Shown piece after piece: positions 6,089 to 61,706 of a stretch of 61,706 nt of DNA. Below the pieces are notes generated by a model that saw nothing but the letters and a program-made list of their open reading frames with translations, was not told where the DNA came from and did not search any database. A program made the translations under genes and the position numbers. Source of the DNA: Patescibacteria group bacterium (GTDB taxonomy: Bacteria > Patescibacteriota > Patescibacteriia > Buchananbacterales > GWA2-38-13); the NCBI GenBank assembly GCA_028712155.1, contig JAQTQO010000004.1:1-61706 (forward strand), written 5' to 3'. How positions within the stretch are numbered: position 1 is the first letter of the stretch; each line of letters opens with the position of its first letter.

Positions 6089-6892
6089 ATGAAAACTATC
6101 ATCATCACCAAATCTCGGGTACGCCTACCGCGCAGGCAAAAAGACTCGCGCAAAGGCGACAACGGCCGCGTGCTGGTCATCGGCGGCTCGCCCGAATACA
6201 TCGGCGCGCCGGCATTGGCGGGCATTGCGGCGCTGCGTTCGGGCGCCGACTCGGTCGTAGTCGCGGCACCGGAGAAAGTCGCCTGGGCGATCAATTGTCT
6301 GTCGCCGGATTTGGTGACAAAAAAATTGCCGGGCCGATTCCTCAGCCCGCGCCACTTCTCTGCACTTCAGAAAATGGCGGCTACCGCTGACTGCGTGCTG
6401 ATTGGCGGTGGCGTACACCCCCGGCCGCCGTCGCTTGCCTTGATAAAAAAATTCGCCGGCACATTTGCCGGGTTCAAAATCCTGGATGCCGCGGCAATCA
6501 CCGCGTTTGATCGCGTCAAACTACGGAATGCGATTCTGACACCCAATACTTGCGAATACGAACACCTGCAGCAGTATGCCGACATTCGTCAGCTGGTGGC
6601 ACGCGGAAATATTGTCGTTGCCAAAAGCTGGCGGACAACAATTTATTCAATGCACGGCACCTACGAAAACCGCACGGGCAATCCAGGGTTAACCAAAGCC
6701 GGCACCGGCGACGTACTCGCCGGCCTGATCGCCGGTTTCACTGCGCAGTCTAAAGACCAGCTGCAATCGGCCATCAATGCCGTCTACTATCTCGGATTAC
6801 TTGGGGATGCGTTACTGAAAAAGAAAAAGGGGTATTTCTACCTCGCGTCGGATCTCGCCCAAGAAACACGGCGCATCAAAACCGAAAAATAA
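6089..6892 (+). CDS. nnrD: ADP/ATP-dependent NAD(P)H-hydrate dehydratase
   Basis: GDNGRVLVIGGS and GTGDVLAGLIAG motifs. ATG 6089 has SD GAGAGGG (the track start is GTG 6083). Confidence 0.85.
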   Translation: MKTIIITKSRVRLPRRQKDSRKGDNGRVLVIGGSPEYIGAPALAGIAALRSGADSVVVAAPEKVAWAINCLSPDLVTKKLPGRFLSPRHFSALQKMAATADCVLIGGGVHPRPPSLALIKKFAGTFAGFKILDAAAITAFDRVKLRNAILTPNTCEYEHLQQYADIRQLVARGNIVVAKSWRTTIYSMHGTYENRTGNPGLTKAGTGDVLAGLIAGFTAQSKDQLQSAINAVYYLGLLGDALLKKKKGYFYLASDLAQETRRIKTEK

Positions 6893-6929
6893 AGAAAGGA
6901 GCCTCGAAAAGCAAATGCTCTCGAGGCTC
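6885..6929 (-). terminator. intrinsic terminator of the minus-strand RNA gene
   Basis: GAGCCUCGA/UCGAGGCUC stem followed on the minus strand by CUUUCUUUAUUUUU. It overlaps the nnrD stop. Confidence 0.65.
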
Positions 6930-7260
6930 GATAGGCAAGGTTTTGTATCCTTGAAACTTCCGGCACAGGCAGTAAAGCTGCCTCCCGGAGATCCTCGCGA
7001 CCATGGGGCCGCGGACGATCCAGAAACATCTCGGTGCTGGGGTACTCTCTCCTCGATAACAACCGAGGATAGTGCCTCACGCACAGGGGGAATCTATTTG
7101 TTCCCAACCTTTCCCGATGTTCCCTTTATCCCCGGAACGTTCAGTAAACTCACGTGGACCGATACTCCTGCCTTGCCCAAGCAGGTAGGGGTTACTAGTT
7201 TGCCACCGTGGTGGCAGGTAACCCAGCCCAGAGTTTAAAAGAACAGGGGAATGAATCGTG
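6893..7260 (-). ncRNA. unassigned ~365-nt structured RNA (family not recognised)
   Basis: Own consensus promoter and terminator, many local helices, no credible ORF. Confidence 0.55.
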
Positions 7261-7266
7261 ATAGTA

Positions 7267-7295
7267 ATAATACACCATTATTGAAATTTTGTCAA
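7267..7295 (-). promoter_or_regulatory. sigma70-like promoter of the RNA gene
   Basis: Minus strand TTGACA-17 nt-TATTAT. Confidence 0.65.
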
Positions 7296-7379
7296 GAGAA
7301 ATTCAGAATATTTATCTATTTTTTGCCTTCATTGACAGAAAATATATACATCATCAAATATTGAAAAATTCCATAACAT

Positions 7380-8090
7380 ATGGGAGACACAATCGCGCCA
7401 CCACCAATTGCTCCCCGAAAAGATCAAGTTGCGGGAAATGGCCAACCGGATGCAAACGGGTGGCAAAAATGGGTACGGAATGGCGCTTTTTCCCTCGCCT
7501 TTGGAGTCACGGTAGTACTTTCCAGCGCCAATATCGTGATTTTTAACCCCGCAATTCAGCAGCTGATTTTGACCACCGCGCCGGTCGCCGAGTTCAGTGT
7601 GCAAGAACGGCTGCAGGAGACACAAACGCTCCTACGATATTTCCGCACGCGCAACGATCACTTGCTCTCCGGCTACTCCGAAGATGAGCGTGCGCACCTC
7701 GCGGAAGTCGCCGGCGTATTCAACGTCGGACGATGGCTGCTCATCGTCAGCGCGACCGTGACGGCGCTGCTGGCGGGGTGGACCCTCCGTCGCTACGGCT
7801 GGACGGCGCTGCGCCGGATGATTTGGCACGCGGCCCGCATCTCCGGCTGGGTATTTTTGGTGCTCCTGGCGCTGGGACTCTTGAACTTCGAACAATGGTT
7901 TGTCGGCATCCATCCGCTGCTGTTTCACGCCGCACCCTGGGCCTTTAACCCTGAGGTGAGCAAACTGGTCAACATTTTTCCTGAAGAATATTTCCGCAAC
8001 GCAACCGCGGCGATTCTCATCATGACCGCAGCCGTCAGCTGGGGGCTGCGACTGGCCTCCAAAGAGTCAACAAAACGGCGCCCGGTGTAA
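7380..8090 (+). CDS. TIGR01906/DUF1461-like integral membrane protein
   Basis: Four or five TM helices. Loop with E..H..EV motif (EDERAHLAEVAGVF) typical of the family. Confidence 0.5.
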   Translation: MGDTIAPPPIAPRKDQVAGNGQPDANGWQKWVRNGAFSLAFGVTVVLSSANIVIFNPAIQQLILTTAPVAEFSVQERLQETQTLLRYFRTRNDHLLSGYSEDERAHLAEVAGVFNVGRWLLIVSATVTALLAGWTLRRYGWTALRRMIWHAARISGWVFLVLLALGLLNFEQWFVGIHPLLFHAAPWAFNPEVSKLVNIFPEEYFRNATAAILIMTAAVSWGLRLASKESTKRRPV

Positions 8091-14557: not shown

Positions 14558-15370
14558 ATGAAGTCCCCTCCGCGCGTTCCGAACCGATACATTTTTCCGC
14601 TACTATTCTTTACCGCCGGCCTGGTCGTCGGCGTTTTGCTTGCGCGGACTCCGAAAAATCAACCGCGAAACGCGGATACGCCGCTGCCGTCCCCTGCTCC
14701 GACGACAACTGCCGCCACGACCACCGTGAACGAAAATTCTGACAATCCAGACACCGCGGATGCGGTCATTACGGTCGCGCGCGTAATTGACGGCGACACC
14801 ATTGAACTTTCCGACGGCAGCCGCGTCCGCTATATCGGGATTAATACTCCTGAGCTCAAGCACGGCGGAACCGCCGAAGAATGCTTCGCGATTGAAGCAA
14901 AAGCGGCGAACGAAAAACTGGTACTCAACAAATCCGTGCGGCTGGAACGCGATGTTTCCGAAACCGACCGCTACGGGCGGCTATTGCGGTACATCTACGT
15001 CGGCAATACCTTTGTGAACCTCGCGCTGGTTGCCGATGGTTTTGCTTATGCCTCGCCGTACCCGCCCGATGTCGCCCACAACGACGACTTGCGCGCGGCC
15101 ATGGTTACGGCGCGCGAACAGGGCAAAGGATTATGGAGTGGTTGCCCCACCTCCGGTACCACTGCCTCCACTCCTTCCGCTCCAGCACCGGCACCGGAAG
15201 GTTGCGCGATTAAGGGCAACATCAACGCGAAAGGAGAAAAAATCTACCACCTGCCCGGCTGCGGTTCGTATTCTAAAACCTTTATTGATGAAACCCAGGG
15301 CGAGCAATGGTTTTGCACCGAAGCCGAAGCAACCGCCGCAGGTTTTCGGAAAGCAGGAAATTGCCCCTAA
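14558..15370 (+). CDS. membrane-anchored thermonuclease (SNase) with C-terminal sunset domain
   Basis: VIDGDTIEL...[17 protein letters not shown]-terminal KIYHLPGC...FC. Confidence 0.85.
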
Positions 15371-15445: not shown

Positions 15446-16012
15446 ATGACCCCGAAACGAAAACATCGTTTTCAAGAAGTTGCGGCCAGCCGTCAACTTG
15501 ATTTGACGGTCGTTTTGGAAAACATTTGGGATCCGCACAATGTGGCCGCCATCTTGCGTTCCTGCGATGCCGTCGGCATCCAAGAAATCAACTTGGTTTA
15601 CAACATTGATAAATTCCCCGGCATCGGAACCAAGGCTGCGGCCGGCGTAAAAAAATGGCTGACGTTCAAACGCTATAAATCCATTGCCGCGTGCTACCGC
15701 GCGCTGCGCCGCCGTAAATTTTCCATTTACGCCAGCACCCTGCAGTCCGGTTCGCGCGACTTGTACCGGCTGAATTTCAAAAAACCAACCGCCCTGGTGT
15801 TTGGCAACGAGCATCGCGGCGCCAGCGCCGACGCCGTTCGGCTGGCCGACGCAGCGTTCCGCATCCCGCAGGTCGGCTTTGCCCAAAGTCTGAACGTCTC
15901 AGTCGCCGCTGCCGTCAGTTTGTACGAAGCCTTCCGCCAACGACGGAAGCTGAATAAAAAAATCAGCAAGCAGAATCGAGAAAAACTGCTGAGGAATTGG
16001 AACAGAAAATAA
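15446..16012 (+). CDS. SpoU/TrmH-family RNA 2'-O-methyltransferase
   Basis: HNVAAILRSCDAVG, VFGNEHRGAS and SLNVSVAAAV motifs. Confidence 0.8.
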   Translation: MTPKRKHRFQEVAASRQLDLTVVLENIWDPHNVAAILRSCDAVGIQEINLVYNIDKFPGIGTKAAAGVKKWLTFKRYKSIAACYRALRRRKFSIYASTLQSGSRDLYRLNFKKPTALVFGNEHRGASADAVRLADAAFRIPQVGFAQSLNVSVAAAVSLYEAFRQRRKLNKKISKQNREKLLRNWNRK

Positions 16013-16090
16013 AAAAATTTTTGGCAGCCGCAGAGATGGGCCGCATTTTTTGTCCATAAAACATACTACTATTTTTGCGATACTATCATA

Positions 16091-16119
16091 TTTTGCATTC
16101 AACGCGCCGGTGGTATAAT
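16091..16119 (+). promoter_or_regulatory. extended -10 promoter, leaderless-type
   Basis: TGgTATAAT ends 8 nt before ATG 16128. No SD. Confidence 0.5.
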
Positions 16120-16127
16120 ACTTTCTC

Positions 16128-17342
16128 ATGCGCAAACCAGTCCTCACCATTACCCTACTCATTCTTGCTGCGGCAGGCGTGTCTGCAGCGGTGTTGTTCA
16201 TGCGCAAACCGCCTACCGCTGGCAATCGAGCCGTTCCCGCAGTTTCGCCCACCCCGATCCCCGACATCATTCATGCCTATACTATCCAAGCCGGCGACAC
16301 CTTTGGTATTTTAGCCGAACAAGCTGGTCTGCCGGCAACCACGACGCAAGCGATTCTCGCGGCCGCCGAAGACATCCATACACTGACCAGTATTACCGCG
16401 GGCAAGCCAATCCGCTTCATCTTTGACCCATCAGGCAGCCAACTGAAGTCCGTTGAATACGAAATTTCCACGGAGAATTTTTTGCGGGTGACGCGCGACC
16501 AGGCGGCATGGCATGCGGAAAAGCTGCCCATCGACTACACCGTCAAACAAGCCACCGCCGACGGAAACATTTCCTCGTCATTGTACGAAACCATGGTGGA
16601 GAAGGGATACGACGACCGGCTGGCAATTGCCCTGGCCGAAGTCTTCGCCTGGCAGGTCGATTTTGCCGTCGACGTTCGGACCGGTGACACCTTTTCCGTC
16701 CTCTACGAACAACGCTACCGCGATGGCAAATACGTAATGCCGGCCAACATCCTGAAAGCCACGTTCACCAATGCCGGCCAAACCTATACGGCCTACTACT
16801 TTGCGAGCGGCACGACGACCGACGGCTACTTCGACGCCCAGGGCAATTCCGTCCTGCGGATGTTCCTCAAATCGCCCCTCGCCTATCGCTACATCAGTTC
16901 GGGGTACACCGGCGCGCGGCGCGATCCGATTTCAAAAGTAATGACCGCGCACTACGCCATTGACTACGCGGCCAGTTCCGGGACGCCGGTGGTGACCGTC
17001 GGCGACGGCACCGTCACGCAAGCCGGTTGGAACGACGGCTACGGTATTTCGGTCACGGTCCGCCACAATGAAACCTACACCACGCGGTACGGCCACTTCT
17101 CGCGACTTGCCAAAGGCATCCGCGCCGGCGCCAAAGTGCAGCAAAACCAGGTTATCGGCTACGTGGGCTCTACCGGGCACTCCACCGGCCCGCACCTTCA
17201 CTACGAAATGTTTAAGCGCGGAGCCAAGGTCAACCCCTTCACGGTGGATATTCCGGCCGGGAAAGCCGTTCCGGAAAATCTGCGGGAAGTATTTCAGACC
17301 GAAGTTTCCCGTTTAGATGCACTCTTTACCGCTGCGCAGTAA
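16128..17342 (+). CDS. M23 family metallopeptidase with LysM domain
   Basis: LysM YTIQAGDTFGILA; HxxxD and HLHYEM motifs. Confidence 0.9.
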   Translation: MRKPVLTITLLILAAAGVSAAVLFMRKPPTAGNRAVPAVSPTPIPDIIHAYTIQAGDTFGILAEQAGLPATTTQAILAAAEDIHTLTSITAGKPIRFIFDPSGSQLKSVEYEISTENFLRVTRDQAAWHAEKLPIDYTVKQATADGNISSSLYETMVEKGYDDRLAIALAEVFAWQVDFAVDVRTGDTFSVLYEQRYRDGKYVMPANILKATFTNAGQTYTAYYFASGTTTDGYFDAQGNSVLRMFLKSPLAYRYISSGYTGARRDPISKVMTAHYAIDYAASSGTPVVTVGDGTVTQAGWNDGYGISVTVRHNETYTTRYGHFSRLAKGIRAGAKVQQNQVIGYVGSTGHSTGPHLHYEMFKRGAKVNPFTVDIPAGKAVPENLREVFQTEVSRLDALFTAAQ

Positions 17343-17343
17343 T

Positions 17344-18570
17344 ATGAAAAAAATTCTTGCCGCCATTGCCGTCTTGGGATGCGCGTTGCCAACTATAGCG
17401 ACTGCCGCCGAGGTTCCCCTGTCGAAAAGACTGACCAGCCGTTTTTTGCTGCAATCCGACGCGCACGATGCGGCCTGGTACGTACACCCGGCCACCAACG
17501 AACGGTATTCCTTGCGCGACTCGGATATTTGCTTTTCCACCGCCGCAAGTTTGGCGCTTGGCATCAGCGATGCCGATCTTGCCAAGCTGGCCACTCCCGC
17601 CGCCCGGAAACGCAATGCGAAACTCGCTTCGCGCCTCCGCGGCCGCTTTCTTCTGGCGGTCCAGCAGCACGGCGCCTTACTGTATTTCAGCCCCGTTGAC
17701 TCCGCCCGCTCTCCCATCCCCGACGGAGACACGTGCCTGACCCTGGCCAAACGCCTCGGACAAAAAGTGAAAACCAAGGAGCTCGCCAGCATCCCGATGA
17801 ACACGGAACAGTTGATCTTTGATCCCGCGTTCAGCCAGGTGGCGTCCGCAAAAATTGTGAACGGCAAACCGGTGGCCGGACGCTATCCCAATCAAATCCT
17901 GCCGATCGCATCGCTCACGAAACTGATGACGGCACTGGTCATCTCGGATCTCAAGCCGGACTGGGAACGAGAAATCACCCTGACCGCCGAAGACCTGGCC
18001 TACCCGCAAACGCAGGTGGATCCGGGCGACATTACCAGCGAGGTGGCGTTTGCCGTCGGCGACACGGTCACCGTCCGTGAACTCTGGGTGGCGATGCTGG
18101 TGTCCTCCTCCAACCAAGCGGCAATTACGCTCGCCGATCACAGCGGCCTGCCGATTCCCGCATTCGTCTCCGCGATGAACTCGAAAAGCCGTGCGCTGGG
18201 CCTGAACCGGACCGTGTTCATTGAACCAACCGGTCTTGACCCCGACAACATCAGCACCGCGGCGGAGATGGCGAAAATCGCCGCAGCGGCTTTTGCTAAT
18301 CCGACGATCGCCGACACGACCGTACTCAAAGAATTTACCATTGCCGCCCGCCAGACGGACGGGGCCATTCGCGCCGTGCCGGTTACCAATCGTAACTATT
18401 CACTCCTGCAATTTAGCGTCGACGGCGCCAAAACCGGTTTCCTCTACGAAGCGCAGCGCACCGTCGCCGTCCGCAAGGGAAACACCATCGCCGTAGTCCT
18501 GCACGCCCGCAGCATGTCGGAACGGAATCAGTTGCTCACCACGTTCCTCGGAGAACCGAAAAAACCTTGA
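17344..18570 (+). CDS. D-alanyl-D-alanine carboxypeptidase (peptidase S11) with N-terminal extension
   Basis: SLTK, SSN and KTG motifs. Signal peptide starts from ATG 17344. Confidence 0.85.
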   Translation: MKKILAAIAVLGCALPTIATAAEVPLSKRLTSRFLLQSDAHDAAWYVHPATNERYSLRDSDICFSTAASLALGISDADLAKLATPAARKRNAKLASRLRGRFLLAVQQHGALLYFSPVDSARSPIPDGDTCLTLAKRLGQKVKTKELASIPMNTEQLIFDPAFSQVASAKIVNGKPVAGRYPNQILPIASLTKLMTALVISDLKPDWEREITLTAEDLAYPQTQVDPGDITSEVAFAVGDTVTVRELWVAMLVSSSNQAAITLADHSGLPIPAFVSAMNSKSRALGLNRTVFIEPTGLDPDNISTAAEMAKIAAAAFANPTIADTTVLKEFTIAARQTDGAIRAVPVTNRNYSLLQFSVDGAKTGFLYEAQRTVAVRKGNTIAVVLHARSMSERNQLLTTFLGEPKKP

Positions 18571-18595
18571 CAACATTTCTCGATCTCCGTATAAT
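18567..18595 (+). promoter_or_regulatory. perfect consensus sigma70 promoter
   Basis: TTGACA-17 nt-TATAAT. It overlaps the stop of the upstream gene. Confidence 0.7.
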
Positions 18596-18601
18596 TCTTC
18601 T

Positions 18602-18750
18602 TAGAAGTGGGTCTTTATCCGACCGACGGTCCCCGTTCACTGGTGACGCCATTCCCTCTCCTGGAGGGGCATCTCCTCTCCCCTTCAGAAATGAAGCAAG
18701 TATAAGGCAACACCTTTACCAGTCCCTGAACGGGGACTTTCTTATTACTC
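18602..18750 (+). promoter_or_regulatory. structured ~150-nt leader or small RNA, unassigned
   Basis: An 11-bp long-range helix GTCCCCGTTCA/TGAACGGGGAC encloses about 85 nt with two hairpins, followed by TTTCTTATT. Confidence 0.45.
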
Positions 18751-18810
18751 AAAGATATTTCCAGGAACAAATTCATTCTCCTGTTTTCAATATCTAATTT
18801 TACTCACTCT

Positions 18811-19413
18811 ATGACTCGAAACCCCCTGCTAATCGCCGGTTACGTATTGGCCGGCCTGTGCCTGGTCGGAATTATCGTGCTGGGCACCATCATGCTGCGC
18901 TGTTCAGCGGTGCAGTGTTACTTTGGGACTACACCGCCGCCCCTGCCTTCGCCGACGCCGTCCCCCCTGGCGGTCAACAATTTTTTAGACTGCGCCAACG
19001 CCGGCTATCCGATCATGGAATCCTACCCGCGCCAGTGCAAAACCCCGGACGGCCGCTCCTTTACCGAAGATGTCGGGAACGCCCCGGAGCTGAACGAATT
19101 GATTTACGTAGACAGCCCCAAGCCGAACGCCATAGTGCAAAGCCCGCTGATGGTCACCGGCGCCGCGCGTGGCAATTGGTACTTCGAGGCGTCGTTTCCC
19201 GTCAAGCTGCTGGATGCGAACGGCAACGTGCTCGTGCAAACGCCGGCCCAGGCGCAAAGCGATTGGATGACCACGGAATTCGTACCCTTCTCGGTCAAGC
19301 TCACATTTGAAGCGCCCACCACCACGACCGGTACCCTCGTACTGCAAAAGGATAACCCATCGGGACTGCCGCAATATGACAACGCCCTGCGCGTGCCGAT
19401 ACGATTCCACTAG
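18811..19413 (+). CDS. Gmad2 immunoglobulin-like domain protein with N-terminal TM anchor
   Basis: The C-terminal 110 aa match the Gmad2 pattern (SPL.VTG.ARG.WYFEASFPV.L.D.NG). Confidence 0.7.
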   Translation: MTRNPLLIAGYVLAGLCLVGIIVLGTIMLRCSAVQCYFGTTPPPLPSPTPSPLAVNNFLDCANAGYPIMESYPRQCKTPDGRSFTEDVGNAPELNELIYVDSPKPNAIVQSPLMVTGAARGNWYFEASFPVKLLDANGNVLVQTPAQAQSDWMTTEFVPFSVKLTFEAPTTTTGTLVLQKDNPSGLPQYDNALRVPIRFH

Positions 19414-19432
19414 TCACCAAACCACTTGATAC

Positions 19433-19464
19433 AAAAAATCCGCAGCTGGCTGGCTGCGGATTTT
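19433..19464. terminator. bidirectional intrinsic terminator
   Basis: ATCCGCAGC/GCTGCGGAT stem. T4 on plus, T6 on minus. Confidence 0.7.
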
Positions 19465-19466
19465 GA

Positions 19467-19604
19467 TTATGGATTGAGCCCTCCGGACGAACCCGGCGAC
19501 GGAGTGTGGTGCGGCGGGTGCCGGCGGCGGGCGACCCGTAACCGCGCAAGGTGTTTGGAAAGTTGAGCAGCGGTATCGGCGAACTGCTGGTCGTCTTTGG
19601 CTTC
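19467..19604 (-). pseudogene. orphan duplicate of the atpC 3' end
   Basis: In the epsilon frame it reads EAKDDQQFADTAAQLSKHLARLRVARRRHPPHHTPSPGSSGGLNP*. No start codon is in frame. Confidence 0.75.
19504..19604. repeat. direct repeat copy B
   Basis: 19504-19556 is identical to 20370-20422 (53 bp). The next 48 bp are roughly 70 percent identical by eye. Confidence 0.9.
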
Positions 19605-20369
19605 CCCATTAGCGTCTCCGGTTGAAATCAATTGTATTGAGCATAACGTTTCCGGCAGAGACTTTGATAATCCCCGAACAGTTGAAAATCACAGTAATCA
19701 ACTTCTTTGCACTTCTCCCGGTATTTCACGAACACGGGATTCTCTTCAATCAGCCTTCTCACGAGAGACACTTCCGGATCGGATAAGGGCGAACAAACGG
19801 AGGCCAAATGGACCGCGTAATACTGAGAAGATACCGCGATGTCGGGGGGGAAGAACAAATTTTTAAAGATAATCTCTCCACCGGGGTAGATATATTTCCC
19901 GTTGGCCGTCCCTCCGCGCCCAGTAATTTGCATGGGAACGAGCATATGGCCGATGAACCATTGGGGGAGGTGGAGGATATTTTTGTACGAAGCAGGTAAA
20001 TCGTTGGCCACCACGAATTGCCAATGATAACTTGACGCAAAGTGGCGAAGTATGTGTTCTCTCTCAATAAAAAAATCCGTATGGATAGACCCTTGCCAAA
20101 TGCAAAAATCCAGGAGTCTATGAAATACGGTGGGTTCATCCGACAAAAATATCCTTAACAGTTCACGGTAGTCAATTTTTTCCCCATCACGAGCACGTAA
20201 CAATTTTTCAAAAATCGCACGCTCCTCTTTATCCGAAACTGGACAACGACAACTCAAAAGTATCCGGAAAAGAAGGTCAAGTGCATCTTGTGAAATTTGA
20301 ATGGCCATATTTATCCTTTCCAGACTACCGTCATGGCTTCGGACTCAATCCTCGGGTACCGGCCCCGGC
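19557..20369. mobile_element. putative integrated single-gene cassette between the two repeat cores
   Basis: Visibly AT-richer than its flanks and bounded by duplicated atpC 3' sequence. No recombinase gene present. Confidence 0.4.
19628..20308 (-). CDS. hypothetical protein (226 aa) on the low-GC insert
   Basis: ATG with SD GGAAAGGA. No motif recognised. Confidence 0.65.
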   Translation of the reverse strand: MAIQISQDALDLLFRILLSCRCPVSDKEERAIFEKLLRARDGEKIDYRELLRIFLSDEPTVFHRLLDFCIWQGSIHTDFFIEREHILRHFASSYHWQFVVANDLPASYKNILHLPQWFIGHMLVPMQITGRGGTANGKYIYPGGEIIFKNLFFPPDIAVSSQYYAVHLASVCSPLSDPEVSLVRRLIEENPVFVKYREKCKEVDYCDFQLFGDYQSLCRKRYAQYN

Positions 20370-20788
20370 GTGTGGTGCGGCGGGTGCCGGCGGCGGGCGA
20401 CCCGTAACCGCGCAAGGTGTTTAGCGAGCTGCGCGGCAGTATCCGCAAATTTCCGGTCGTCTTTGGCTTCAAGCTGGAGCACGGCTGCGCGCTCGCGCGC
20501 CGCTTCGGCCCGCGCGACGTCGATTTCTTCCGCGCGCTCGGCCGAGTCGGCCAGAATCATCACCTGGCTGCCGGGGTTGACCTGCGCCACGCCACCGGAA
20601 ACCGCGAGGTACTCTTCGCGGCCGTTGCGGCGTATGATCAGCTCCCCCGGTTCGAGGTTGGCAACCAGCGGCAGATGGTTGGGCAGCACCGTAATCTGGC
20701 CCATCTGGGTCGGGATGGAAACGGAATCAATCTCGGCCTCAAGCACCAGGCGTTCCGGGGTGGCGAGTTTGAATTTCAACATTGCCAT
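20345..20788 (-). CDS. atpC: F1 ATP synthase epsilon subunit
   Basis: N-terminal beta-sandwich pattern LVANLEPGEL. Basic and Pro-rich C-terminal tail. Confidence 0.9.
   Translation of the reverse strand: MAMLKFKLATPERLVLEAEIDSVSIPTQMGQITVLPNHLPLVANLEPGELIIRRNGREEYLAVSGGVAQVNPGSQVMILADSAERAEEIDVARAEAARERAAVLQLEAKDDRKFADTAAQLAKHLARLRVARRRHPPHHTPGPVPED
20370..20470. repeat. direct repeat copy A (inside the intact atpC)
   Basis: See copy B. Confidence 0.9.
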
Positions 20789-29660: not shown

Positions 29661-30884
29661 TTAAACCTCGAAAATTTTTTGTACCTTTTTGATGCCACGC
29701 ACCAATTGGTCGATATCCTCTTTTGTATTGTATATTCCAATACTCGCGCGGACCGTGGCCAGTACGCCGAGTTTGGTGTGCAGCGGCATCGCGCAGTGAT
29801 GACCGGCACGCACCGCGATACCAAGAGTATCAAAAACGGACGCCACATCGTGCGCGTGCACGCCGTCGATATTAAAGCTGATGACCGCACCATGATCAAC
29901 CGCGGTATGCGGCCCGTAGACGGTCACGCCGGACAACATCGTCAACTTTTTCATCGCGTATCGCACTAGCGCGCGTTCATGCCGCCGGATAGCCGGCCAT
30001 CCGATGGCGCGCAGCATGGCAATTGCCGCGCCCAAGCCGACGATTCCCGCGGCGTTTTGCGTACCGGCTTCAAACCGGGCGGGCGGGTCGGCAAACGTGG
30101 TTTTCCCCCAGCGCACCTCGGCCACCATCTCGCCGCCGTACTGATACGGCGGGGCATCCTCGAGCAACGCGCGGCGCCCCCACAGCACGCCGATGCCGGT
30201 CGGGCCGTACATTTTGTGTCCGGAAAATGAAATCCAGTCGCACCCGAGCCGGGAAACATTGATCGGCTCATGGGCGACCGCCTGCGCCGCATCCACCAAC
30301 ACGCGTGCTCCAACCCGATGCGCCAGCCGGATAATCGTCGGCAGCGGAGGGCGCACGCCTAGAACATTTGACGTATGCGTTACGGAAACCAGCTTCACGC
30401 GCCGGGTCAAATGCCTTCGCAACCATTGGAGATCAAGATTGCCGTTCGCCGTGATCGGAATAAACGAGAGTTTCCATCGGCGGCGCGCGGCCAGCTGCTG
30501 CCACGGCACGAGATTGGAATGATGCTCAAGCTCCGATACGATTACTTCGTCACCCGGACGCAGATGCGCAAGCGCCCACGTGTACGCAACCAAGTTGATC
30601 GCGCCCGTGGTCCCGGACGTAAACACCACTTCCGACGCGTCGTCTGCGCCGATAAAGGCGGCCACATCGCTGCGCACCTGCTCGACCATTTCGGTCGCCT
30701 CCACGCCCAGCTGGTACAGTCCCCGCCGCGGGTTGGCGTTGTGCCGGCGGTAAAATGCGTCCATCGCCGCGAGCACCGCCGTCGGTTTCTGCGCCGTGGC
30801 CGCGCTGTCGAGGTAGGTCAACGGATGCCCGTGGATGCGGCGGGAAAAAATTGGATAACTTTTTTTGATATTTCTGATGCTCAT
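29661..30884 (-). CDS. sufS: cysteine desulfurase SufS
   Basis: Class V aminotransferase. SFSGHKMYGPTG PLP-lysine motif, RAGHHCA. ATG 30884 is preferred over the track's TTG 30893. Confidence 0.95.
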   Translation of the reverse strand: MSIRNIKKSYPIFSRRIHGHPLTYLDSAATAQKPTAVLAAMDAFYRRHNANPRRGLYQLGVEATEMVEQVRSDVAAFIGADDASEVVFTSGTTGAINLVAYTWALAHLRPGDEVIVSELEHHSNLVPWQQLAARRRWKLSFIPITANGNLDLQWLRRHLTRRVKLVSVTHTSNVLGVRPPLPTIIRLAHRVGARVLVDAAQAVAHEPINVSRLGCDWISFSGHKMYGPTGIGVLWGRRALLEDAPPYQYGGEMVAEVRWGKTTFADPPARFEAGTQNAAGIVGLGAAIAMLRAIGWPAIRRHERALVRYAMKKLTMLSGVTVYGPHTAVDHGAVISFNIDGVHAHDVASVFDTLGIAVRAGHHCAMPLHTKLGVLATVRASIGIYNTKEDIDQLVRGIKKVQKIFEV

Positions 30885-30889
30885 ATAAA

Positions 30890-31516
30890 TCAAACTTTCA
30901 TCTCCGCGCCACGACCCACCAGTTTTATATCGTCATCCCGCACGAGCACCGCCTGCTCGTCGGTAAGAATTTTTACCGGATATTTTGCCAAAGGAACTTC
31001 TTTTTTAAGAACGGATAGATATTCTGGTTGATAATGTACCGATAAAATGAACGGTACCAAGCTCAGGCCGGTTAAATCGGTTAATCCCACCATATTTCGG
31101 TCCTGATGTTTCCAGTTTGCCATTTCGATGGTGGGACAAGTAATGTAGCTTCCGGCGCTCACGCCAATATATACAACACCCCGTTCGATTAGCTCTTTTA
31201 CTACTTTGTCAAAGCCACTTTCTTTGACGTATTTTAATAGATAAAAAGTGTTACCACCTTGTACGTAAATGACGTCTTTGCCGGCCAACAATGAACGCAG
31301 CTGATTTTCGGATTTTCCCCTCACATCAATATTCTCCACTTGAAATCCGCACGCCAGCAAGTCCTGCGTATCTTGGACAACATAAGAAGTGTCATTTTCT
31401 GCCAAGGACGCGGTGATAATATGCGCCAGTTTTAATTGCGACGCTGGTTGAGGTAATATTTTTAGAATTTCACCTTTAACGCGCATGCCCGCCGAGGTCA
31501 AAAGTATGGTCTTCAT
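30890..31516 (-). CDS. peptidase S51 (PepE-like) family protein, low-GC
   Basis: GGNTFYLL and GVSAGS motifs. ATGA overlap with the sufD stop. Confidence 0.8.
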   Translation of the reverse strand: MKTILLTSAGMRVKGEILKILPQPASQLKLAHIITASLAENDTSYVVQDTQDLLACGFQVENIDVRGKSENQLRSLLAGKDVIYVQGGNTFYLLKYVKESGFDKVVKELIERGVVYIGVSAGSYITCPTIEMANWKHQDRNMVGLTDLTGLSLVPFILSVHYQPEYLSVLKKEVPLAKYPVKILTDEQAVLVRDDDIKLVGRGAEMKV

Positions 31517-32163
31517 AGTAATGCTATTTTTTTCTGAAATGCTACTATAACTTCCTCTCTTAATTTAATGTTCTCCAAGTTTATTAAGGCTGCTCCAAAA
31601 AATGATTGTACCAGCAAACGCCGCGCGGAGGTTATCGAAATCCCGCGCGACCGGCAGTAAAAAAGCTGCGTCTCGTCGAGAGGACTGGCTGCCGACGCGT
31701 GGTGGATGTCCACATCATCGGCTTCAATCTGCAGCTGCGGGAGCAGACGGATTTCCGGATTCGGTGCAAGCAGCAACGCCCGCTGTTCCAACCGCGACAC
31801 ACTCCCCTGCCCGGCGAGCGGGACAAAAATCATGCCCTGTACCGTGGCCGATGCCGCGCCATCAAACACCCCCAGGACGCGGTTGAACGCGGTTGCCTGA
31901 CGACCGGCGTGTTCCACCAAGTGGTTAACAGAAATCCGCGCGTCCCGGCCGACGATGACGGTTTCCGCTTCAAGCCGTGCGTTGCGACCAAGCCGAAAAT
32001 GCACGCGTTTCCTGCGCTGGCCGATCCCCAGGGCGGAAAAATACCGCAGGTGCGTACCCGGAGCCAGCTCGATCATCAGTTCCGGCGCCAAATCAAAATC
32101 AATCAGGCTACGGCTGCCGGTTACCCGGATTCGTTTTGCCTTGCTCCGTACTGCAGTCTTCAT
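31513..32163 (-). CDS. sufD: short SufD-like Fe-S assembly protein (C-terminal beta-helix only)
   Basis: Position between sufB and sufS. SufB/D-type C-terminal pattern (QLFYCRSRGI). Confidence 0.75.
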   Translation of the reverse strand: MKTAVRSKAKRIRVTGSRSLIDFDLAPELMIELAPGTHLRYFSALGIGQRRKRVHFRLGRNARLEAETVIVGRDARISVNHLVEHAGRQATAFNRVLGVFDGAASATVQGMIFVPLAGQGSVSRLEQRALLLAPNPEIRLLPQLQIEADDVDIHHASAASPLDETQLFYCRSRGISITSARRLLVQSFFGAALINLENIKLREEVIVAFQKKIALL

Positions 32164-37977: not shown

Positions 37978-39423
37978 CTACAACGAAGCGGCACCCCGGT
38001 CAACGTCTGGCAGTCGCCGCCGGTACACCTGCACGCCGTTGATCGTGGTGACGTATCCGTAGGACTGCCGGATGAAATCGGTGACCGGGTTGCCGACCAT
38101 AAAATCCTTGAACCCTTCGGGTGTCGTGTAATAGTTGAGAAGCACGATCGGCGGAGGATTGGTTTCAAGTGACCGGCGGGCATCCTGGAAAAATGACAGC
38201 GGATGCTGGCCGTAGCGCAGGGCGCGGTAGCGCGTGGGATTCTGCCGCTGAGCTTCAAAATAGAGATTGGGCAGGTACGGGGCAACAAAAATGGGCTGGT
38301 CCGGTTTCACATTCGTTTGGATGTAGGAAACGAGCTGCTCCAGTTGGGGATCCCGGAGCTGAAAGAATGCTACCCATCCCACGCCCGCGACCCGGTGGGC
38401 GAAAAATCCGAGCGACACGAAAGCCAAAATGGCAATCGCCGAGGTTATCCCGAACGCTGCCAGCCGCCGGAATGCCGGTACACCGGCCCGTACGACTTCG
38501 CGATACCATACCGCGCACAGTACGGCCATCGGAAAGAGCACCGGCAGGAGATGAAAGTGGTCAGCCTGACTGAAGTTGCTTGCCGCCAGCAGCACGCCGG
38601 AGAGCCACACGAATTTTTCTTCGCGCGTCAATGTGCGGAAACGAGCCAGCGCGCCGTACAGCAGCAGATAGCCGGCAAGTACCGCAGCAAGCCACCACGG
38701 ACCGGTACGGTTGAACGGCAAATAGTATTGGAAGGAAAAATTGAAGAGATTTTCCCACAGCAACGGCAGCGGCCAGGCAAGCATTGGGAGCATCCCGATA
38801 ACGAGTCCGACCGCAAACGGCAGGATGGCGCGGCGGGAAACCGTTGCCAGATACCACGCGACGGCGACGACCACCGCCAGGCCGCGCGCCTGGTGCATCC
38901 ATACCGTCGCCGCACATGCGAGACCGGCAACCGCCGGGGATATCATCCCGTGACGACCGGCGGAACGGCCAACCGACGCGGCGCGTTCGATGGCCCAAAT
39001 GGCAAAGACCAGCGCGAATGTGTTGTGATTGATCAGCACGTAGTGATCGGACAACAGCAGCCAGACGACCGGCACCGCATACCGCGCCCGCCCGAGGTTC
39101 AAATAACCGCCAACCCGGAGCAATCCGCCGCAGCCAAACACCAGCAGTGCAATGGAAAATATTTTTGCCGCCGCGTAGCTTGGGCCAAACAGCCACAACA
39201 CGGGAGCAAGCAAATAGAGCGACCCCGGCGTAATATTTTCAAAAAAATCCCGGTACGGCGATAAACCCTGGACGACCTGCCACGCGCCAAAAAGCGTATA
39301 GCCCTCATCCTGATTGACCAGGTGCCCCCATTTTAGGGCAACCGCTACCGCGATGAGCGCGATCCAGTATCCGAACCATAGTATGGTACGGGAGGTACGG
39401 CGGTGGGAAAAAAATGCGCGCAT
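37978..39423 (-). CDS. GT-C fold (ArnT/PMT-like) polytopic membrane glycosyltransferase-like protein, paralog 1 of 5
   Basis: About 11 TM helices. First-loop motif DEGYTLFGAWQVVQGLSPYRDFFENITPGSLY. C-terminal soluble domain. Confidence 0.6.
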   Translation of the reverse strand: MRAFFSHRRTSRTILWFGYWIALIAVAVALKWGHLVNQDEGYTLFGAWQVVQGLSPYRDFFENITPGSLYLLAPVLWLFGPSYAAAKIFSIALLVFGCGGLLRVGGYLNLGRARYAVPVVWLLLSDHYVLINHNTFALVFAIWAIERAASVGRSAGRHGMISPAVAGLACAATVWMHQARGLAVVVAVAWYLATVSRRAILPFAVGLVIGMLPMLAWPLPLLWENLFNFSFQYYLPFNRTGPWWLAAVLAGYLLLYGALARFRTLTREEKFVWLSGVLLAASNFSQADHFHLLPVLFPMAVLCAVWYREVVRAGVPAFRRLAAFGITSAIAILAFVSLGFFAHRVAGVGWVAFFQLRDPQLEQLVSYIQTNVKPDQPIFVAPYLPNLYFEAQRQNPTRYRALRYGQHPLSFFQDARRSLETNPPPIVLLNYYTTPEGFKDFMVGNPVTDFIRQSYGYVTTINGVQVYRRRLPDVDRGAASL

Positions 39424-39432
39424 AACACACAA

Positions 39433-40896
39433 TTATTCCGCCGGCGTTCCTCCGTCCGCCCGCTCCAATATTTGTATCGTTGAACCCCCGACGCCGGACA
39501 ATTGCTTAACCACCCGGTAGTACCGATCAAGGTAATGATCAACCTTTGTCCCGTCGCGATGGAAACCGTACTGAACCGCCAGGCTGTTGAGATCGCGTAC
39601 GACAATCCGCGGCCTGGTCCGCTCCAGATCGGCCACGGCGATGAGAAAGTAATCTTCGGAAAACTGGCTGCTGAATAATGAATTGAACCGCGTGGCCGCA
39701 GGCCGCTGGGAAAAAAAATATAAACTCGGCAAAGTCGGCGTGGCGAAAATCGGCTCGCCAGGGGCGGTTCGCTGCTGCACTTCCGCGGCCATGCTCTCCC
39801 AGTACGGCACGCGCAGGCCGAAAGGATCGGCGGACCGATCCAGCCACAGCATGGTGCAGAATACGGCGGAAGAAATAACCAGCAGGCTGCTCACGGCAAT
39901 TCCCAACCCGGCCTGCAAACCATACCAGCACGCAAGCACAATTTTTGGAAACTGGTGCGGCACGGGCTGCTGTTTTTTGGCCGCCGCAATGGCTGAAACT
40001 ATTACGGGCAAAGGCCAGAGAACCATGGGCAGGTACACCAAATCCGCCCGCGCCCACGTCGTCAGCAGGAGGGCGATAGACAGCCACCACAACGGCCAAA
40101 AGCCGGTTTTCTGCAGCCGGAAAATCAATGCCATTGCCGCACACGCCAGTTCAGCTCCCAGACTCAACAGCAGCCATTTCGGATGAACCACATTTGCTTC
40201 CGGATAATAGGCCAGCGGGTACGCTACGAGATGCTGCCACAATACCGGCACCGGCCATGCCAACAGCGGCAGTAAACCGACGCACAGAGCTCCGAGATTC
40301 GCCGCGAGTAAACGCCGCTGACGAACCGCCAGCACGACACCGAGGTCCACGAGTAGCACCGCAAAACCGCGGGTTTGCAGCAGCCACGTCACCGCCGCCA
40401 CGGCCAATCCGCCCGCCACAAACCAGGGCACGGTTCGCTGCCGCCACGCCTGAACTATCGCATAGGCCGCCCAAATGCTCGCGAGATGCGAGTAATTATT
40501 ATAACTGATCAGCGGGAATTGCATTTGCAACGTGATCCAAACCGCCTGTACGGCGATGCGATGCCACCCCGAGCGCGTGAAGAGTTGGCAGAGCCGATCC
40601 AAAATGACGGCGGTCGCAAGCGTCAGTAGTACGGATACCAGTTTGGCCGCCACATAGCTGGGGCCGAACAGCCAGAACACTCCGGCGAGCAGATAGAACG
40701 CGCCCGGCGTATGAAATTCGAAAAAATCGCGGTACGGCACCAGGCCTTGCGTGATCTGCCAGCCGGCAGTCAGATTCAGCCCCGTGTCGGGATCCGGCTG
40801 TGGAAACCAGCTCACGACCAATAGCACCACCGCCACGGAGGTAGCGATGATCACCGTTGCGAGCTGCGAGCGGAATGGATGTGCCGGCGTTGGCAT
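39433..40896 (-). CDS. GT-C-like membrane protein, paralog 2 of 5
   Basis: Same architecture. DTGLNLTAGWQITQGLVPYRDFFEFHTPGAFY. Confidence 0.6.
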   Translation of the reverse strand: MPTPAHPFRSQLATVIIATSVAVVLLVVSWFPQPDPDTGLNLTAGWQITQGLVPYRDFFEFHTPGAFYLLAGVFWLFGPSYVAAKLVSVLLTLATAVILDRLCQLFTRSGWHRIAVQAVWITLQMQFPLISYNNYSHLASIWAAYAIVQAWRQRTVPWFVAGGLAVAAVTWLLQTRGFAVLLVDLGVVLAVRQRRLLAANLGALCVGLLPLLAWPVPVLWQHLVAYPLAYYPEANVVHPKWLLLSLGAELACAAMALIFRLQKTGFWPLWWLSIALLLTTWARADLVYLPMVLWPLPVIVSAIAAAKKQQPVPHQFPKIVLACWYGLQAGLGIAVSSLLVISSAVFCTMLWLDRSADPFGLRVPYWESMAAEVQQRTAPGEPIFATPTLPSLYFFSQRPAATRFNSLFSSQFSEDYFLIAVADLERTRPRIVVRDLNSLAVQYGFHRDGTKVDHYLDRYYRVVKQLSGVGGSTIQILERADGGTPAE

Positions 40897-40901
40897 ACGA
40901 A

Positions 40902-42377
40902 TTACTGGCGCTCGGAGGCGGGCGCGATGCGTTCAAGAAACTCAACCACGGGCCGATCCAGATACGCATACCGCTCCGCTACCCGATAATGCTGATCCAG
41001 ATAAATATCTACTACCGTGCCATCACGATGAAAACCCAGGGCCACCACGGCATCATTGAGCTGACGCACCACCAACCGCGGTTTCGCCGATTCCAGTTCA
41101 TCGATGACTTCGGAAAAATATTCCGGCGGATCAAGCCGGCTCATGAGCCAGTTGTGCCGCGTCGCATTCGGACGCTGGGAGAAAAAATACAGCTGCGGGA
41201 GGTACGGCGTGGCAAAAATCGGTTCATCGGGAGCGGTGCGCTGCTGCACCAGTACCGCCAGCTCCTCCCAGAACGGAACGTGTAGCCGGAACGGATCAGC
41301 GGCAAGACTGGCCCATTGGCTTCGGACAAAAACGGACCCGGCGGAAATTCCGAATACGTATACGAGGGCAACCTGCCAGCGGAATGCCCTGCGACATTGC
41401 TCCTGTCTCCGGCCGGAGCCGCCCGCGAACCCGGCGGCGCAGGAAAACCACAGCACGGGAACCGCCCAGAATGCCAGCGCCAGGTGGGACCAGTCGGCCC
41501 GCGACCAGGTAGTAGCCAAACTCGCCGCAGCAATCCACCACAACGGCCAAAATCCGGTTCTGTTTCGGCCGGCATGCATCGCAACAATCGCCAGAACCGA
41601 CAATACGGCTGCCCCGGCCATCACCCACCCAAGCGACCGGTACGCTGCGCCCGGGTATTGCATCAGCGGATAGACCACCAGCTGCGCCCACAGCAATTGC
41701 GGCGGCCAAACCAAGAACGGCAAAAGGGCAATACTCAAACCGGCCGCGAACGCAAAAAATATTTTCCACCGGCGCACGGCCAGTGCCATGCCCAACCCCA
41801 CGAGGATGAACGCCAGCCCGCGCTGCTGGAGCATCCACGTCACCCCGGCAGCCGCCGCGCCAAGACCGGCAAACCACGCCGGCGTCCGTTTCCGCCACGC
41901 CTGCACCGCGACATACCCGGCCCAGATCGAAGCGAGGTGTGCGTAGGTATTGAAACTGATCAGGGGGAACTGCAACAGCAGCCCCATCCACGCGATCTGG
42001 ACGGCCACCCGCGCCCACCCCGATCCGGTAAACAGCCGGCACAACCGGTCAAGCCCGAAAGCGGTCAGCAGCACCAGCAGGGTGCCAAAAATTTTTGCGG
42101 CCAGGTACGTCGCGCCAAACCATTGAAACACGCCCGCCAATACATAGAAGGATCCCGGCGTCCGAAATTCAAAAAAATCGCGGTACGGCACCAGGCCTTG
42201 CGTGATTTGCCAGGCGGAGGTCAGCGTCTGCCCGACATCCGGATTCGGTTGCGGATACCAGCAAATGACCGCGTACAGCGCCGCCAAAGTACCCACGATC
42301 ATGACGGGAAAAGCGCTCCGCAAGGTCCCTGGCCACGTCGGCCCCGGCTGATTGGATACGGCTGACGATTCCTGCAT
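40902..42377 (-). CDS. GT-C-like membrane protein, paralog 3 of 5
   Basis: Same architecture. DVGQTLTSAWQITQGLVPYRDFFEFRTPGSFY. Confidence 0.6.
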   Translation of the reverse strand: MQESSAVSNQPGPTWPGTLRSAFPVMIVGTLAALYAVICWYPQPNPDVGQTLTSAWQITQGLVPYRDFFEFRTPGSFYVLAGVFQWFGATYLAAKIFGTLLVLLTAFGLDRLCRLFTGSGWARVAVQIAWMGLLLQFPLISFNTYAHLASIWAGYVAVQAWRKRTPAWFAGLGAAAAGVTWMLQQRGLAFILVGLGMALAVRRWKIFFAFAAGLSIALLPFLVWPPQLLWAQLVVYPLMQYPGAAYRSLGWVMAGAAVLSVLAIVAMHAGRNRTGFWPLWWIAAASLATTWSRADWSHLALAFWAVPVLWFSCAAGFAGGSGRRQEQCRRAFRWQVALVYVFGISAGSVFVRSQWASLAADPFRLHVPFWEELAVLVQQRTAPDEPIFATPYLPQLYFFSQRPNATRHNWLMSRLDPPEYFSEVIDELESAKPRLVVRQLNDAVVALGFHRDGTVVDIYLDQHYRVAERYAYLDRPVVEFLERIAPASERQ

Positions 42378-42383
42378 ACATGA

Positions 42384-43820: not shown

Positions 43821-43824
43821 TACA

Positions 43825-45258: not shown

Positions 45259-45291
45259 GAAAAATGCGGACAAACGGAAAAATCCAATAGG

Positions 45292-60831: not shown

Positions 60832-60976
60832 ATACTACATGCTATCATAAAATACACTCTGGCGCCCGCCTCCGGAAAAAGTGAACGCAAACGGAGGAAA
60901 AATCCGCAAGTGGTTTTTCCCCTGTGAAAACTGTCAGGATCTTTCCGCGTGATATTAGCCGAAGGTATTCACTCGG

Positions 60977-60985
60977 TGATATAAT
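60977..60985 (+). promoter_or_regulatory. extended -10 element
   Basis: TGaTATAAT about 100 nt upstream of ATG 61087. Confidence 0.35.
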
Positions 60986-61086
60986 GATTGCGGATCAAAA
61001 TCCACGTTCCAGTGCCAAAAATTTGAATCGTTGAGCCAAAATTCATAATCACCGTCTAAAAAATTTTACTATTAACGTATTTAAGA

Positions 61087-61706
61087 TATGAGAAAAAAAA
61101 TATTGCTGTTTTCTTTCTTGTCAATAATCACGGTACTTTCCTTCTCGCTGGTTGCCATTGCCCAGAGTAATGGCAATACTGCCAGGGTAACAATATTATC
61201 CGAAACAAATTCCGACACGACCGAACAGGCGTTCAAGGGCATTGTGCACACGCACCGGATAGCCAGCCTGCCGCGCGTGAACAATATGCATATCCTCAAT
61301 GTCGACTTGAGCGACGCGGATATTTCTTTCCTCGCTACCCCGTACAACCCGACCGATGGTTACCCGGGTTCGGAAACGAAACTCCAGACGACGTACGATT
61401 TCGCCGCTCAGCACAATGTCCAAGTGGCCATCAACGCCACCCCTTTCTACGATCTCAACGGTGGAGTCTACACGTCCGGGGATCCTGCTGACGTGCGAGG
61501 GCTAGCGGCGTCGCAGGGAACGGTCTATTCGGACTACATGGTTGATTACCCAGCGCTCATCACGGATACGGCCGATCTCGCCTACATCGTAAACGCTTAC
61601 GATCCGCAACCAAGCATCAACAACGCCGTCGGCGGATTTTCCCGCATCCTTACCAACGGCGTCAAGACGCCCTGCACCGACATCCGCTGCACGGCGGTGC
61701 ATCCCA
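61087..61706 (+). CDS. phosphodiester glycosidase (DUF2233/NAGPA-like) family protein, 5' part (runs off the window)
   Basis: ATG plus signal peptide MRKKILLFSFLSIITVLSFSLVAIAQS. Open to the window end. AINATPFYD...GLAASQG pattern. Not in the ORF track because no stop lies in the window. Confidence 0.6.

Follow-up and report, generated by a model that had tools for sequence, protein, structure and literature searches.

How did a single gene of foreign composition come to lie directly behind the gene for the ATP synthase epsilon subunit, and what became of the end of that gene? The question is raised by a stretch of 61,706 nucleotides (nt) from a Patescibacteria group bacterium (GenBank assembly GCA_028712155.1, contig JAQTQO010000004.1, positions 1 to 61,706 of the forward strand), the whole of which is called the window here. 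In it, atpC is followed by one open reading frame (ORF) for a protein of 226 amino acids (aa), termed ORF226, and then by a second, partial copy of the atpC 3′ end. Genomes of the candidate phyla radiation (CPR), or Patescibacteria, are small, and their gene gain is poorly documented. Sequence comparison with four relatives shows that ORF226 is an insertion, and that the native atpC tail and terminator lie downstream of it. As to its origin, we give about an even chance to a one-off, homology-assisted acquisition from a related bacterium, in which the native 3′ end was displaced and a 53-nt identity between the two copies is a conversion or crossover tract.

Read in the direction of atpC, and then into the convergent genes beyond it, the locus is laid out as follows.

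20345–20788, minus strand: atpC (epsilon), apparently a hybrid, 147 aa, with a match to Pfam ATP-synt_DE_N (1e-23); the upstream repeat copy contains its final ~42 codons, and it is most similar to P0240 (151 aa, at least 90% identity) and P0007 (88%).

20455–20470, minus strand: upstream 16-nt block GAAGCCAAAGACGACC, the 5′ boundary of the repeat, also identical in the nearest relative, L169.

20423–20454, minus strand: upstream arm, a1, 32 nt, differing from the downstream arm at 12 positions and standing out from all four relatives.

20370–20422, minus strand: upstream copy of the 53-nt core, perfectly identical to the downstream core.

20359–20369, minus strand: upstream end of homology, 11 nt GCCGGGGCCGG, differing from L169 (GCCGGGGCCAG) at position 10 only.

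20309–20358, minus strand: inserted DNA unlike atpC, forming the new atpC end (..V P E D stop) and a 36-nt spacer, with no terminator.

19628–20308, minus strand: ORF226, the cargo gene, 226 aa, of low GC (guanine plus cytosine) content and from a rare, unannotated family.

19605–19627, minus strand: 23-nt spacer TTTCAACCGGAGACGCTAATGGG, ending at the junction with the downstream atpC fragment.

19467–19604, minus strand: apparently displaced native atpC 3′ end, comprising the 16-nt block, the downstream arm a2 (19557–19588), the core (19504–19556) and the tail with its stop (19467–19503).

19434–19466, both strands: predicted bidirectional intrinsic terminator common to the atp operon and the convergent Gmad2 gene; the same arrangement is found in L008 and L170.

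18811–19413, plus strand: Gmad2-domain gene, convergent, used as a synteny anchor.

17317–18570: Peptidase_S11 gene, following the Gmad2 gene.

The direct repeat (19493–19604 against 20359–20470) spans 112 nt at 87% identity with a spacing of 866 nt, and is the sole repeat of its kind within the window. In the atpC direction each copy consists of the 16-nt block, which is the same in both, the 32-nt arm, whose 12 differences fall mostly at third codon positions, the 53-nt core, and a further 11 nt with 3 differences, after which homology ends and the copies are unrelated. The core occurs exactly twice in the window (0 of 100 shuffles). Since 7 of the codon changes between the arms are synonymous and 3 change the residue, both arm versions appear to have been shaped as coding sequence. 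Beyond the 11 nt the upstream copy continues as TACCCGAGGATTGA into the tail ...V P E D stop; 36 nt further on lies ORF226, with AGGA 8 nt before its ATG, and no terminator-like site was found between atpC and ORF226. The downstream copy is still open in the epsilon frame (EAKDDQQ...SPGSSGGLNP and a stop) and is abutted by the hairpin at 19434–19466 (-18.6 kcal/mol, z = -6.2), which has U-runs on both strands. On the left side of the insert no break is visible in atpC. On the right side the trailer meets the downstream fragment at ...CTAATGGG/GAAGCC..., an abrupt and non-homologous junction (junction sequence GATTGAGTCCGAAGCCATGACGG; the 32-mer of arm a1 is GGAAATTTGCGGATACTGCCGCGCAGCTCGCT). 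One junction hidden in homology and one abrupt junction together are the signature of one-sided, homology-facilitated recombination.

A preliminary description, made from the letters of the window, had reported most of this arrangement, and its observations held up: a 53-bp identical core; an adjoining 48 bp of about 70% identity, which resolves into the identical block and the diverged arm; an upstream copy that closes the current atpC, the last ~4 codons of which prove not to be atpC-like; and one AT-richer gene with its own Shine-Dalgarno sequence and no recognisable domain. It had also made ORF226 the last cistron of the operon with no terminator after atpC, had found no integrase in the element, had taken the whole for a single-gene insertion, and had assigned the original operon end to the downstream copy at the bidirectional terminator. 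These points, too, agree with the results, the last of them through the tails and hairpins of the relatives described next. The insert is evidently not an autonomously mobile unit today. From the co-transcription geometry, ORF226 would be expressed as the last cistron of the atp operon. The displaced atpC fragment also lies within a 54-codon ORF (19467–19631, minus strand), whose TTG start and the TGA stop of ORF226 overlap (AATTGATT); coupled translation there could in principle yield a free C-terminal helix fragment of epsilon.

Which copy is native was decided by relatives. In a protein search the relatives of the epsilon protein were Parcubacteria/Patescibacteria, and the host is a Parcubacterium of the CPR. 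The comparison set, drawn from the protein search plus 90% cluster members, consists of four relatives with DNA: L169 (carrying P0240), with at least 90% amino-acid identity and 27% third-position divergence in the atpC body; L007, with 88% amino-acid identity; L008, with 80%; and L170, which is the P0242 species. In metagenome and genome scans for close atpC relatives, the matches listed all had 57% identity or less. ORF226 and the repeat are absent from all four relatives. L008 and L170 keep the synteny of the window, namely atpC, terminator, convergent Gmad2, Peptidase_S11 and Peptidase_M23, and in L169 and L007 atpC is closed by a natural tail and a hairpin. The downstream tail of the window is homologous to the tails of L170 and L169 (p ≤ 0.0005). 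Past its first 11 nt the upstream tail, compared with atpC tails, has no significant similarity (p = 0.09–0.5); a reading of it as a native tail shifted in frame was rejected. When atpC is rebuilt with the downstream copy it encodes 151 aa, the length of P0240. From the synteny of the relatives, the homologous tail and the rebuilt length, the downstream copy is judged to be the original operon end, to which 866 nt were added, and the single-gene insertion is recent.

The inserted gene is compositionally foreign. ORF226 has a GC content of 44.6%, against 57.2% for the window, and a GC content at third codon positions (GC3) of 0.47, against 0.71–0.78 in its neighbours. A windowed check, proposed in the preliminary description, placed the ORF226 region in the lowest 0.5% of same-size windows by GC and at the 99.9th percentile by tetranucleotide distance. 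Among the 59 called genes, only two have a GC3 below 0.5, the other being a Peptidase_S51 gene inside the suf operon.

Is the structure real? The window is a metagenome-assembled contig, so that faulty assembly, or the joining of two strains into a chimera at the repeat, had to be considered. An independent Logan contig, SRR22315508_826821 (L182), is identical to window positions 15512–19533 at 4021 of 4022 nt (99.975%), that is, up to the core, and stops exactly 30 nt into the 53-nt core. That position would fit the branching of a 31-mer graph at the repeated core, k = 31 being the value we presume. Such a break means that two contexts of the core exist in the sample, which is not proof of one molecule. 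The trailer/fragment junction, however, has no sequence in common with the atpC body, and without a k-mer common to the two a k-mer or graph misjoin cannot have made it. The usual artefact at a repeat is moreover a collapse and not an expansion. We consider an artefact very improbable.

The identity of the segment that came in with the gene is less straightforward. The repeat was cut into segments, each of which was compared with the four relatives, and overlapping sliding windows were run along atpC. Over a 38-nt arm segment the upstream copy is 9–12 nt from every relative, whereas the downstream copy is 4 nt from L169, with which it has a Ser codon in common; the arms themselves differ from L169 at 4 positions (a2) and 11 positions (a1). 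The two copies depart from L169 at 7 positions in the first 24 nt of the core, each of them a third codon position, and from L007 at 4. Over the following 29 nt the upstream copy is identical to L169, and the downstream copy is 3 nt off. In the sliding windows no other stretch of atpC is as divergent as the 62 nt formed by the upstream arm and the 5′ half of the core: the closest relative lies at a distance of 14, where the gene body reaches at most 13, and L169 at 18, where the gene body reaches at most 14. By these comparisons the upstream, in-frame copy appears as a contiguous outlier block and the downstream copy as a mosaic of a native-like arm, an outlier-like core half and a native tail. 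The 53-nt core is thus poorly described as a simple attachment (att) core, since the upstream arm and the core 5′ half form one outlier block and the downstream arm and tail are native-like.

With middling confidence, we read the pattern as an imported atpC-like segment placed in front of the native one, in the register known from e14 at icd, with the 16-nt block at the boundary. In this scheme, about 0.87 kb of DNA would have recombined into the atpC 3′ end of a Parcubacterium. The incoming DNA would have consisted of an atpC-like segment of ~112 nt, ~50 nt unlike atpC, ORF226 and the 23-nt trailer, and the donor would have been a related CPR bacterium in which ORF226 already followed atpC. 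Entry may have taken place by homologous exchange, now hidden in atpC, on the left and by an illegitimate join at the abrupt junction on the right. Natural transformation is a plausible route, as natural competence has been shown in Patescibacteria (PMC10633639). The native arm, tail, stop and terminator would have been pushed 866 nt downstream, surviving as the fragment, and since the imported segment is in frame, atpC would have become a hybrid with ~4 new terminal codons. The perfect identity of the 53 nt would reflect a later gene-conversion or crossover tract that homogenised the copies, not an att core.

Precedents for such an event exist. For type VI secretion system (T6SS) and Rhs loci, it has been proposed that one-sided homology-facilitated recombination leaves 3′ ends displaced (PMC5361080). 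In the 3′-end displacements of T6SS effector-immunity, Rhs and contact-dependent inhibition (CDI) loci, as would be the case here, the incoming DNA is anchored by homology to the upstream, conserved part of a gene, delivers a new 3′ end together with a downstream gene, and orphans the old end together with a conserved piece, with no integrase (PMC5361080). The difference is that those loci encode polymorphic toxin-immunity pairs under diversifying selection, whereas atpC is a housekeeping gene and its new tip consists of ~4 arbitrary codons.

Several observations weigh against the acquisition scheme. Only four relatives with DNA are available and the nearest is 13% diverged, so that the assignment of the arms as native or foreign rests on a few dozen sites in overlapping windows. 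The downstream copy, too, has the outlier-like 5′ half of the core, which calls for one more conversion step. The upstream tail begins in an L169-like way (GCCGGGGCC), and a perfect 53-nt block amid diverged sequence also resembles an att core. Homology-facilitated illegitimate recombination is, in addition, usually accompanied by deletions of recipient DNA and not by duplications. The L169-like tail start is a better fit to a Campbell-type variant, in which an 866-bp circle carrying an L169-like a2 and an L169-like tail start crossed over inside the core. This variant could also account for the sequences. It explains the L169-like pieces neatly, but the native gene must then hold the outlier block. 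A crossover in the core with an element-borne, L169-like a2 was the account favoured initially; the sliding-window outlier test shifted weight away from it without settling the matter.

A further alternative is that ORF226 inserted with a perfect target duplication of ~112 nt, and that a divergent patch of atpC was afterwards imported into one of the copies from another strain. The sharp clustering of the differences (12 in 32 nt, 3 in 11 nt) between perfect blocks of 16 and 53 nt is what such a patch would leave, and the genomes compared do show a mosaic pattern of divergence. This history needs at least two events and a target duplication of 112 nt for which no mechanism is known; and since both copies have an outlier-like core 5′ half, the native gene would already have carried that block. 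We regard it as improbable.

Mobility by a dedicated enzyme, as in integrase-mediated elements that replace the 3′ end of a gene (e14 and phage 21 at icd, tRNA/tmRNA islands, ICESt1/3 at fda), was also sought. The 866-nt insert holds one ORF and no recombinase, transposase or mobility gene, and no terminal inverted repeats were found at its ends. A search of the window for the tyrosine-recombinase box II motif found none, and phmmer of the window with two recombinases as queries gave no match, both being weak tests. A transposon or insertion sequence was rejected, as the ends lack inverted repeats, there is no transposase, and the repeat is 112 nt long and diverged. An integron cassette was likewise rejected: positions 19401–20520 contain no GTTRRRY and a single RYYYAAC, which lies inside arm a2. 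An att-like feature is nevertheless present in the identical 16-nt and 53-nt blocks within the 112-nt repeat at the insert ends. Regeneration of the target 3′ end is partial, in that the atpC frame is closed, yet homology reaches only 11 nt past the core and the last ~4 codons are not atpC-like. Recurrence at the same site was not seen, the sites of the four relatives being empty and the homologues of ORF226 lying in unrelated contexts. The preliminary description had ascribed the geometry to site-specific integration into a gene's 3′ end; such an event, with its crossover in the 53-nt core, is not supported, as the insert has no recombinase and no terminal inverted repeats, and seven other loci of the family have no flanking repeat.

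A fuller form of that proposal is a decayed or trans-mobilised integrative element whose tyrosine or serine recombinase was deleted or resides elsewhere, with its att site in the atpC 3′ end. Like e14 and phage 21 at icd, it would have brought along a substitute for the 3′ segment of its target, and an internal deletion would have left ORF226 between attL and attR in the manner of a cis-mobilizable element (CIME). The geometry is that of e14 at icd in Escherichia coli MG1655, which we checked: a 165-nt duplication, an 11-nt identical boundary block, differences mostly at third positions and a displaced icdC, a layout also described in the literature (PMC13626634). Both loci have a short identical block at the 5′ boundary (11 nt in e14, 16 nt at atpC), an in-frame substitute 3′ segment differing mostly at third positions, a native fragment displaced to the far end of the insert, and a host gene that stays functional. 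The 53-nt perfect block can be added to the 16-nt block in favour of such an element, as can the homologue P0004, which belongs to the cargo of an island that also has Phage_integrase, serine recombinase and TraG genes.

The two loci differ in other respects. Whereas e14 measures 15.2 kb and carries intE and xisE, the atpC insert has 866 nt, a single gene and no recombinase. In e14 the substitute reaches the natural stop at ~92% identity, but the homology at atpC ends 26 nt before the native stop and gives way to a new tail, so that the end was not regenerated. Identity along the atpC repeat is bimodal, with perfect blocks of 16 and 53 nt against 62% in the 32-nt arm. Furthermore, no element lies at the atpC 3′ end in any of the four relatives, no viral contig in IMG/VR carries an atpC segment coding for AKHLARLRVARRRH, and relatives of ORF226 are absent from the phage, plasmid and IMG/VR collections searched (tblastn of INPHARED and PLSDB, and IMG/VR). 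CIMEs, for example at the 3′ end of fda in Streptococcus thermophilus, resemble the insert in being small and integrase-less and in lying between direct repeats at the 3′ end of a housekeeping gene. They are defined by the att sites of a known, co-resident family of ICEs (integrative and conjugative elements) able to mobilise them. We know of no ICE or att specificity for atpC in CPR bacteria, and none was found in this analysis. A decayed or trans-mobilised element is, in our judgement, an unlikely though serious alternative.

What ORF226 itself encodes bears on the remaining possibility. A search of 5.8 billion proteins returned only four relatives, and a profile search of 1.84 billion representatives returned 115 matches, nearly all single-domain proteins of ~225–235 aa; by this measure the family is rare, unannotated and phyletically scattered. 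Pfam gave no credible match (its one hit, DUF997, reached 15.9 bits where the cut-off is 26.3), matches in PADLOC, PHROGs and NCBIfam were at most sub-threshold and at chance level, and the profile found nothing below E = 0.03 among the sequences of the PDB. AlphaFold2 models reached a predicted local distance difference test (pLDDT) score of 83.6 with 5 sequences and 95.9 with 38, and predict a helical N-terminal part and a β-barrel resembling the oligonucleotide/oligosaccharide-binding (OB) fold. Structure prediction with Foldseek, suggested in the preliminary description, thus yielded a confident model but no identity: in two PDB runs and one BFVD run no match had E ≤ 0.001 and none fell below 0.03, and the recurrent weak matches were OB-fold domains over the β-rich middle only. 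Across 38 family members His95 and Pro125 are invariant and Ile5, Cys20, His121, His167 and Arg221 nearly so, residues that could form a metal or catalytic site.

The neighbourhoods of the homologues are different each time. One is a defence and mobile island with AbiEii, SMODS-SLATT and PD-(D/E)XK genes; others hold a GH38 mannosidase, LytR_C and HypC together with a NiFe hydrogenase, or phosphofructokinase and penicillin-binding protein genes. None of the five loci with called flanking genes has atp genes nearby, and elsewhere the homologues have the GC content native to their genomes (26–71%). Flanking repeats at the seven other family loci do not exceed chance, apart from a repetitive extragenic palindromic (REP)-like element in L004. 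There, a 51-nt element (GAGATTGCTTCGTCGCAAGCTCCTCGCAATGACA) occurs four times (30–80, 443–493, 1215–1265 and 2143–2193), and two of the copies bracket the ORF226 homologue P0005. The suggestion, made in the preliminary description, that the cargo acts on or with the ATP synthase finds no echo in these contexts; on the sequences at hand, nothing supports a link of the family to the ATP synthase or marks it as a dedicated mobile gene.

The remaining possibility is a homing-type mobile ORF. ORF226 would then be a new site-specific nuclease or nickase, of a possibly OB-containing fold, that cuts atpC alleles lacking the ORF, and double-strand-break repair would copy the ORF along with a recoded, cleavage-resistant 3′ segment, as for the ORFs in fungal mitochondrial atp6, atp9, cox2 and nad3. 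The architecture is identical to that of the fungal cases (PMC3630166). In Allomyces macrogynus atp6 and in Glomus atp6, atp9, cox2 and nad3, a foreign C-terminal segment is followed by an ORF and the native copy; the native copy is closer to relatives, close relatives have alleles lacking the ORF, and the ORF is co-transcribed with the host gene, which for atpC and ORF226 is suggested by the gene layout (PMC3630166). One homing-type trait is present in the window, namely an in-frame inserted C-terminal segment that has diverged further from relatives than has the displaced native copy. Recoding of the upstream arm is dense: 10 of 12 codons differ from L169, with only 3 amino-acid changes relative to the downstream arm. 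The rarity and phyletic scatter of the family would also suit a homing gene, as would the presence, in a related species, of a DUF559/MTES_1575 endonuclease-like gene in the atpD–atpC spacer. The fungal ORFs, however, encode LAGLIDADG or GIY-YIG endonucleases whose homing is demonstrated or inferred, and they are mitochondrial, whereas the host of ORF226 is a bacterial chromosome. In ORF226 no domain or fold match to a LAGLIDADG, GIY-YIG, HNH or other nuclease was found in Pfam, NCBIfam, PHROGs, the PDB profile search or Foldseek with the pLDDT 95.9 model, the best weak structural matches being the OB folds. None of the seven other family loci has a partial duplication of a neighbouring gene, the homologues are native in composition, and a single occupied atpC site is known. 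We hold homing to be quite improbable.

Taken with the known systems, the layout at atpC is of a known kind: an in-frame substitute 3′ segment, a cargo gene and a displaced native 3′ end. What is unusual is the combination of 866 nt and one gene, no recombinase or nuclease, a CPR host, atpC as the target, incomplete regeneration of the tail and bimodal repeat identity. The insert is not clearly a new kind of mobile element.

The 3′ flank of atpC is variable in the clade (L007 620–1090, L170 4496–4712, L169 625–1285). In L007 an additional 58-aa ORF, which has its own terminator, separates the atpC terminator from Gmad2; in L170 the spacer measures 218 nt and contains two hairpins; and in L169 an HD-domain gene takes the place of Gmad2. 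In the P0242 species the DUF559/MTES_1575 gene (123 aa, Vsr-like endonuclease fold) lies between atpD and atpC at L170 3633–4004, also at L177 64–435. It is flanked by repeats of the CCCCTC...GAGGGG type and looks like a selfish, endonuclease-like gene in the atp operon. Because it precedes atpC, gene callers give atpC of this species a spurious N-terminal extension (MTPSNSPPHEGEGEK).

Other parts of the window were noted in passing. The Peptidase_S51 gene (208 aa, 30890–31516, minus strand; GC3 0.45) lies between a sufD-like gene (31513–32163) and sufS (29661–30893), with 4-nt overlaps at both ends, and is a second single gene of foreign composition in a housekeeping operon. The lowest-GC 681-nt window of the contig (41%, from near 30960) falls inside it, and no flanking repeat was found around it in the suf operon. 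Two more low-GC patches (47% or less in 681-nt windows) occur at 6741–7491 and 60441–61471; the first is mostly non-coding by the gene calls and has no Rfam match at the gathering threshold. A secreted protein (14558–15370, plus strand) has, by eye, a segment like staphylococcal nuclease and a Cys-rich C-terminal part, a reading that would fit DNA scavenging or uptake. Positions 37978–45273 (minus strand) hold five tandem paralogous genes of ~1.45–1.47 kb (482–491 aa), multi-pass membrane proteins of glycosyltransferase-like appearance, with which nucleotide repeat families overlap. A 267-nt tandem repeat of 4–6 units (55693–57099) lies inside a gene for a 1055-aa Cys-rich secreted protein (55365–58532, minus strand).

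If the insert were an integrase-less mobile unit or a homing element, a mechanism of prophages or fungal mitochondria would extend to bacterial chromosomes; ORF226 as a homing nuclease at CPR atpC would be a bacterial counterpart of the fungal mitochondrial mobile ORFs. The family itself, represented by ~115 clusters, modelled with confidence and without a known relative, lends itself well to characterisation. The scar at atpC is a tidy record of a reduced genome taking a gene into a core energy operon. The foreign gene would have entered without inactivating the operon because a substitute gene end came along, and ORF226 now appears to ride on atp operon transcription. Together with the other inserts around atpC in the clade (the DUF559 gene and the 58-aa ORF) and the low-GC gene in the suf operon, it suggests that housekeeping operons may be preferred landing sites.

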